A DNA stretch of 50,867 bases from Eledone cirrhosa (lineage: Eukaryota), in the NCBI GenBank assembly GCA_964016885.1, contig CAXHJY010001356.1:1-50867 (forward strand), read 5' to 3'. The notes under the pieces were generated by a model. The model ran no database searches. It saw only the letters and a program-made list of their open reading frames with translations, and was not told the DNA's origin. Made by a program: the position numbers and the translations under genes. Shown one piece after another: positions 41,329 to 41,394 of this stretch (position 1 is its first letter; each line of letters opens with the position of its first letter).

Positions 41329-41394
41329 TATTTTATTATACATATTTCAAGGGCAACCAAGGCAAATTTTGGTGCGCTTTCATCAGATAAAATA
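41329..41394 (-). ncRNA. Minimal type I hammerhead ribozyme, intact core
   Basis: Minus strand reads TATTTTAT-CTGATGA-AAGCGCACCAA-AATTTGCC-TTGGTTGCCCTT-GAAA-TATGTA-TA-ATAAAATA. This gives an 8-bp stem I, stem II AAG/CTT + GCA/TGC + CCAA/TTGG, quasi-palindromic stem III ATATGTAT and cleavage triplet ATA. Confidence 0.8.

Follow-up and report, generated by a model that had tools for sequence, protein, structure and literature searches.

Penelope-like retrotransposons of the Hydra clade are defined, in the sections of Craig et al. (2021, PMC8557442) compared here, by an endonuclease of GIY-YIG type that is C-terminal and free of CCHH, by the motifs DKT and RWK, a CxCx5C linker, CxxC and CxH motifs, (TA)n targets and hammerhead ribozymes. 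Hydra elements with hammerheads are already published in those sections, including an octopus element whose hammerhead differs from the one described below. The metazoan Penelope-like hammerheads presented in the relevant parts of Cervera and de la Pena (2014, PMC4209133) are of type I, with an intact core, a long helix II and a palindromic helix III, and they occur as thousands of solo copies and as opposite-strand pairs. The Poseidon element PAc of Anolis, which belongs to a different clade, has two alternative 3' ends downstream of its hammerhead, and its copies span the cut (Frangieh et al. 2024, PMC11167929, in the parts compared). Non-LTR retrozymes, as outlined in portions of bioRxiv 10.64898/2026.07.22.740005, are non-coding copies with a type I hammerhead related to Penelope-like terminal repeats. 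A dimer requirement and internal starts of reverse transcription are reported for other such elements in parts of PMC4209133, PMC6765202 and PMC11167929. It is known that Penelope-like repeats carry hammerheads, whose cleavage may or may not matter for transposition.

The window, which is the whole 50,867-nucleotide stretch of DNA analysed here and makes up an entire contig, contains a hammerhead motif on its minus strand (Table 1). With high probability, this motif comes from a high-copy Penelope-like retrotransposon with Hydra-clade features, whose hammerhead it is, and it is present as a 5'-truncated stub beside (TA)n and likely to cleave only when two copies pair via the stem III palindrome.

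Table 1. Features of the hammerhead locus, in window coordinates
Feature	Position	Strand	Basis
Type I hammerhead motif, probably of dimer type	41329..41394	-	Descriptor match, 0/3,104 shuffles; covariation
Stem I 5' arm	41387..41394	-	8 Watson-Crick pairs with 41336-41329
Core CUGAUGA	41380..41386	-	Sequence; invariant except position 7 in 10/10 aligned rows
Stem II, 10 pairs, C-C mismatch at fourth position	41349..41379	-	Fold; 5/6 counted pairs changed on both sides
GAA and 8-base palindrome, would form stem III between two copies	41338..41348	-	119/123 copies with self-pairing inner four bases; dimer energy
Predicted cleavage site, after A of AUA	41336..41337	-	Position from hammerhead geometry
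Stem I 3' arm	41329..41336	-	8 Watson-Crick pairs with 5' arm
Predicted distal stem I extension, 5' arm, pairs with 41319-41310	41403..41412	-	Cofold of flanks
Predicted distal stem I extension, 3' arm	41310..41319	-	Cofold of flanks
5'-truncated 3' end (pseudo-LTR fragment) of Hydra-type Penelope-like retrotransposon	41287..41440	-	Matches family copies from 41440 to (TA)n junction
(TA)n tract, likely insertion target at short 3' end	41242..41286	.	Tandem repeat; TA repeats at family ends

The motif is real and is built just as a preliminary description had it: a perfect 8-bp stem I, CUGAUGA, an AUA triplet, a stem II of about 10 bp closed by A-U, GAAA and a quasi-palindromic stem III are all in the sequence. 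Its elements are those of a type I hammerhead, namely CUGANGA...GAAA...NUH, three helices and ends in stem I. All 8 pairs of stem I in the window copy are A-U. Stem II consists of 10 pairs arranged as 3+3+4, with one C-C mismatch, one bulged U and an A-U closing pair. GAAA begins at 41348 on the minus strand, the palindrome AUAUGUAU occupies 41345-41338 when numbered from A15.1, and the cleavage-site A is 41337. The numbering and geometry of hammerheads are established, and the cut that had been predicted between 41337 and 41336 agrees with them. The G of the palindrome still pairs as G-U, and as a monomer stem III has only 2 pairs. The term "minimal" does not hold, since cofolding of the flanks predicts that stem I continues beyond an internal loop into a further helix of 10 pairs in the window copy and 13 in the common copy; two bases of this distal helix are lost in the window copy. 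The (AT)n tract, placed about 40 bp away in the preliminary description, ends about 35 bases from the motif, and that account lacked the point that the tract is the element's likely insertion target.

A strict descriptor, which missed the second hammerhead motif of the window at 105-198, found exactly one match in the whole window, the motif at 41394-41329. Dinucleotide shuffles in 1-kb blocks gave 0 matches in 3,104. The folding energy of the motif by itself is not significant (z -1.54), with 17 of 200 shuffles equally good. Rfam returned 5 matches and no hammerhead model for 41290-41445 at E up to 10, and only microsatellite-driven microRNA matches among the best 150 of 366 for the whole window. 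A library match is no part of the definition of a hammerhead.

The copy in the window is 154 bases long, 5'-truncated and of the short-end type, ending in (TA)n, and it is the only piece of the element found there. It is about 97% like its relatives. The locus has a twin, insertion included, in which window positions 40741-43200 match contig C13 (G000, 45.39-45.40 Mb) at 96% over about 2.5 kb; the two may be a second, uncollapsed haplotype or a duplication, and the hammerhead of the twin carries changes in stem II. An empty insertion site was sought in six copies of the flanking repeat (L154-L159), each of which matched one flank only. The 5' flank, window 41445-41720, is another dispersed repeat with 1,915 candidates, a piece of which recurs at window 1-40. 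Frames of at least 100 codons listed in 36000-50867 are nearly all simple-repeat frames, and none looks gene-like by eye. This single locus is ordinary transposon debris, a lone stub that is likely inert when no second copy is at hand, and a host gene role for it is not supported.

The family to which the stub belongs is large, as a count of genomic copies shows. The 3.0-Gb genome holds 8,566 exact occurrences of a 20-base word that spans the core and 0 of the reversed control word. A 150-base query gave 1,196 candidates, of which the 40 scored yielded 51 matches at 91-100%; at 11 of these 40 places two copies lie on opposite strands, the inverted layout described for Penelope-like elements. 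An exact word from the start of the ORF has 65 copies. Most family copies are short stubs, with the ratio of 8,566 to 65 inflated by subfamily variation. A word at -110 from the cut has 86 copies, and one further upstream has 586.

Longer copies carry the motif on the sense strand of the element, after a long 3' UTR. The unit of about 3.9 kb comprises an ORF encoding a reverse transcriptase, a Cys linker and, at the C terminus, a GIY-YIG domain, followed by an AT-rich 3' UTR of about 1.4-1.5 kb and the hammerhead. In partial tandems, the ATG of the next ORF lies 193 bases after the predicted cut on the same strand, and the core stands at the same spacing before the ORF start in 16 of the 25 loci examined, out of 30 with an ORF-start junction. 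One natural copy, locus L166, reads (TA)n, a short inverted end, a hammerhead, a leader, a 743-codon open frame and the 3' UTR, after which come another hammerhead repeat, now decayed, and TA repeats; point decay affects its reverse transcriptase motif, and YRDD is intact in other copies. Partial tandems (L064, L166), inverted copies, 5' truncation and two alternative ends are together the pseudo-LTR organization of Penelope-like elements. An arrangement at one locus, L017, had suggested a hammerhead antisense to the ORF; this was rejected, the locus being an inverted terminal copy. About 210 bases before the cut, at L064:5290-5335, a run of pyrimidines closes with CAG and so resembles a 3' splice site.

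By its sequence features the element is a Penelope-like retrotransposon of Hydra-clade character, a placement made by motifs. The ORF contains RWR, a variant of the listed RWK, as well as DKT, the CxCx5C linker, and CxxC and CxH around conserved E and N residues. The endonuclease has no CCHH: a single Cys lies between VVY and YVG, and there is no Cys pair inside the GIY-YIG core. TA repeats follow 61 of the 73 short or long ends, in keeping with insertion into (TA)n. Pfam scored GIY-YIG at 21.9 bits against a cut-off of 22.6 (E 2e-4) and RVT_1 weakly (E 0.11), and at E 0.01 it named no domain in any of six homologs. Searches with the reverse transcriptase gave 70 homologous matches, and the 2 of them with a named source come from Argonauta hians, which makes an octopod the likely host; one homolog, P0047, resembles, by eye only, the Penelope-1_NV row in the part of the PMC8557442 supplement compared. 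Three other assignments were rejected. The linker has no match to CX2-5CxxC and the endonuclease core no Cys pair (no CCHH), unlike the Neptune clade; the endonuclease is C-terminal and a hammerhead is present, unlike the Naiad clade, with its N-terminal endonuclease and no canonical hammerhead; and the locus holds a single copy, where a non-LTR retrozyme has at least two consecutive tandem units, each with a hammerhead.

The element shares with the Hydra clade, including Hydra-1_Obim of Octopus bimaculoides, the C-terminal GIY-YIG endonuclease, DKT, an RW-basic motif, CxCx5C, CxxC, CxH, the absence of CCHH, (TA)n and a sense hammerhead near the 3' end, as far as the sections of PMC8557442 compared describe them. 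It differs from those descriptions in the length of its unit and 3' UTR, the clade being generally under 3 kb, which is a tendency and not a rule, and in having RWR instead of RWK. Its hammerhead is unrelated to the sequence listed there for Hydra-1_Obim, and most of the Hydra hammerheads listed have a stem III with a loop of 1-3 bases, whereas stem III here is an even, 8-base palindrome. Six motif strings from the family hammerhead matched no hammerhead entry in the portion of the PMC8557442 supplement searched.

Other elements accompany the family in this genome. Fragments of other Penelope-like endonucleases adjoin family copies at L011:1736-2227 and L026:1976-2866, one Neptune-like with two Cys inside the GIY-YIG core and one Hydra-like, and at these loci (TA)n tracts are common to the different Penelope-like families. 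At L031:6317-9514, on the minus strand, long frames of an LTR-retrotransposon-like element interrupt a family copy. The motif at 105-198 (window 86-235, plus strand) had been said to belong to a separate family sharing no primary sequence beyond the core. Both statements were borne out: the two have only 7-8-base words in common (best E 0.41), and 105-198 is a high-copy repeat of its own, with 2,843 candidates, 40 of them scored. This repeat has an 8-base palindrome, its copies in some cases form inverted pairs, and it stops at (TA)n about 45-50 bases beyond its cut; judged by these features it is likely another Penelope-like family. Window 60-340 matches contig C245 at 100%. Hammerheads of about ten other, unrelated types, most with a palindromic or near-palindromic stem III, lie in the flanks of loci L002-L148 (151 loci, 592 kb), and from these the genome appears very rich in hammerhead types.

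The descriptor, applied to those 151 loci, identified 135 distinct hammerhead contexts, among which are several sister types that have stem I and the core in common but not stem II or the palindrome. Of these, C, D and E are assigned to the family on their hammerheads. Ten hand-picked, related rows were aligned, leaving out two near-duplicate types. Since stem I and the first two pairs of stem II were required by the descriptor with which they were found, the unbiased part of the comparison is the palindrome and the deeper pairs of stem II. Across the 10 rows, 97.8% of cells pair, compared with 36-62% in slid controls. Pairs changed on both sides number 5 of 6 in stem II, 2 of 4 in the stem III palindrome and 0 of 8 in stem I, and only 4 of 500 shuffles reach this total of 7. 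The core is invariant in these rows save at position 7, the position of the hammerhead that tolerates change. The inner four bases of the palindrome in 123 copies are ATAT in 88, ATGT in 17, GCGC in 12, ACGT in 2 and others in 4, so that four self-pairing types cover 119 copies. The compensatory changes proposed as a check are thus found in stem II and the palindrome across sister subfamilies, and they point to a fold that is conserved and is likely functional as a dimer.

Computed energies bear on this model. In the window copy the active monomer has -5.2 kcal/mol and the best monomer fold -9.7. The active dimer, at -22.0 kcal/mol, lies below a pair of active monomers (-10.4) and a pair of best monomer folds (-19.4); lower than the active dimer by 2.9 kcal/mol is the best of the computed dimer folds (-24.9), which is inactive.

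The caution that stem I is all A-U is answered by its conservation across subfamilies. The sequence of stem I and a pyrimidine mismatch in stem II are kept across subfamilies while other pairs covary; at stem II position 4 the mismatch is C-pyrimidine in 9 of the 10 rows and U-C in the tenth. A tertiary contact or a protein site is a possible explanation of this conservation. In likeness to the metazoan Penelope-like hammerheads, the family combines the type I form, intact core, long helix II and palindromic helix III with thousands of solo copies and opposite-strand pairs. It differs from those in the parts of PMC4209133 compared by the A-U closing stem II, where G-C is usual (two sister types here have G-C), by a stem I of 8 pairs plus the predicted distal helix, and by the recurrent mismatch at stem II position 4.

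Among 95 distinct cut-spanning matches, a set drawn by the study's own queries and not a random sample, 41 end at +45 to +62, 32 at +135 to +160, 15 extend into the ORF and 7 stop at other places. The two insertion ends, which fall about 50 and about 145 bases beyond the predicted cut, are separated by about 95 bases; 31 of the 41 short ends and 30 of the 32 long ends are followed by TA repeats. Both places also appear as loose ends carrying TA repeats in contigs of three sequencing runs; these come from one sample, possibly the source of the assembly, are not independent and do not bear on expression. Of the 21 matches that extend as far as the start of the ORF, none starts within 12 bases of the cut. 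Starts at -107 to -115 from the cut in 16 of 32 first-search matches form a cluster at the query edge, inseparable from query bias. PAc also has two alternative 3' ends, but in the parts of PMC11167929 compared its ends lie inside the ORF with a tail of 30-40 bases, whereas those here lie upstream of the ATG.

These observations fit a model of the life cycle of the element. A transcript running from terminal repeat to terminal repeat would hold two hammerheads, which would fold as a dimer via the palindrome and cut the RNA back to the length of one unit. With (TA)n nicked by the endonuclease, reverse transcription would begin at one of the two sites, internal to the RNA, and read back across the cut site, usually stopping early to leave stubs like the window copy. 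Because copies span the cut site, the template is likely uncut or rejoined RNA. In the Anolis element, according to the parts of PMC11167929 compared, insertion in vitro could do without hammerhead cleavage and the cut coincided with no read end, so a trimming role is unproven in general.

The same Anolis results bear on a reading that retains the identity of the element and differs from the main explanation on function only. The fold could be kept mainly as a structural or protein-binding signal near the start sites of reverse transcription, with cleavage weak or dispensable. Stem I is kept across subfamilies without compensatory change, no match reaching the ORF start (0/21) has its beginning within 12 bases of the cut, and core mutants of the Anolis element still inserted in vitro while its ribozyme needed protein, according to the same parts of PMC11167929. 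A core invariant except at the tolerant position 7 and a covarying palindrome are, however, what catalysis in a dimer leads one to expect, and the signal reading is possible but somewhat unlikely. The excess of the hammerhead word over the ORF-start word (8,566 to 65) and the start cluster at -107 to -115 (16/32 first-search matches) would suit the idea that the short stubs form a non-autonomous family, SINE-like or retrozyme-like, with transcription and copying of its own. Yet the cluster, lying at the query edge, is partly selection, and the 86 against 586 copies of the upstream words fit subfamily variation and ordinary 5' truncation. Head-to-tail arrays of short units, typical of non-LTR retrozymes in the portions of bioRxiv 10.64898/2026.07.22.740005 compared, were not noticed in an unsystematic look at the fetched loci, and the copies here are instead the dispersed, truncated end of a coding element. 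Such a family is decidedly unlikely.

Two further readings concern the locus itself. The preliminary description proposed that the motif cuts antisense or host intronic transcripts, and the copy might have been kept to cleave such a transcript at the locus, its core and stems being intact and the palindrome G still pairing as G-U. A likeness of about 97% to its relatives means that this intactness needs no selection, two bases of the distal helix are lost, the C13 twin has stem II changes, and the frames in 36000-50867 are nearly all simple-repeat, none gene-like by eye. The proposal is not supported either by the facts that the minus strand is the sense strand of the carrier retrotransposon and that the copy is a lone truncated stub, with a short palindromic stem III that predicts poor monomer cleavage; maintenance for a host target is highly improbable. 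A chance match in AT-rich DNA would agree with the z-score of only -1.54 and the absent Rfam hammerhead, but it is refuted by the 0 of 3,104 shuffles, the thousands of copies, the covariation and the place in a retrotransposon repeat, which leave it virtually no probability. The hammerhead of a Hydra-type Penelope-like retrotransposon remains the preferred reading.

A search of the literature on octopus and cephalopod hammerheads and Penelope retrotransposons found no account of the family. The main text of an Octopus vulgaris repeat paper lists Penelope-like elements, and the word ribozyme is absent from it. The family may already be catalogued in repeat supplements or in Repbase or Dfam. The finding is a genuine, conserved hammerhead of a known kind, in a Hydra family that is likely undescribed, and not a new system.

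Thousands of solo hammerheads share one palindrome and one stem I, which makes it possible that host pre-mRNAs reading through near-identical copies pair in trans and cut each other. This is very unlikely; if true, a cephalopod-like genome would have a network of RNA cleavage that spans the whole genome and derives from a transposon. More immediately, the family is a convenient test set, with over 8,000 copies, palindromes that show compensatory variation in nature, two sharp ends about 95 bases apart and a natural copy with a 743-codon frame. With it one could ask whether the internal starts of reverse transcription demonstrated in a single Poseidon element apply to the Hydra clade as well, and whether uncut or rejoined RNA serves as the template.
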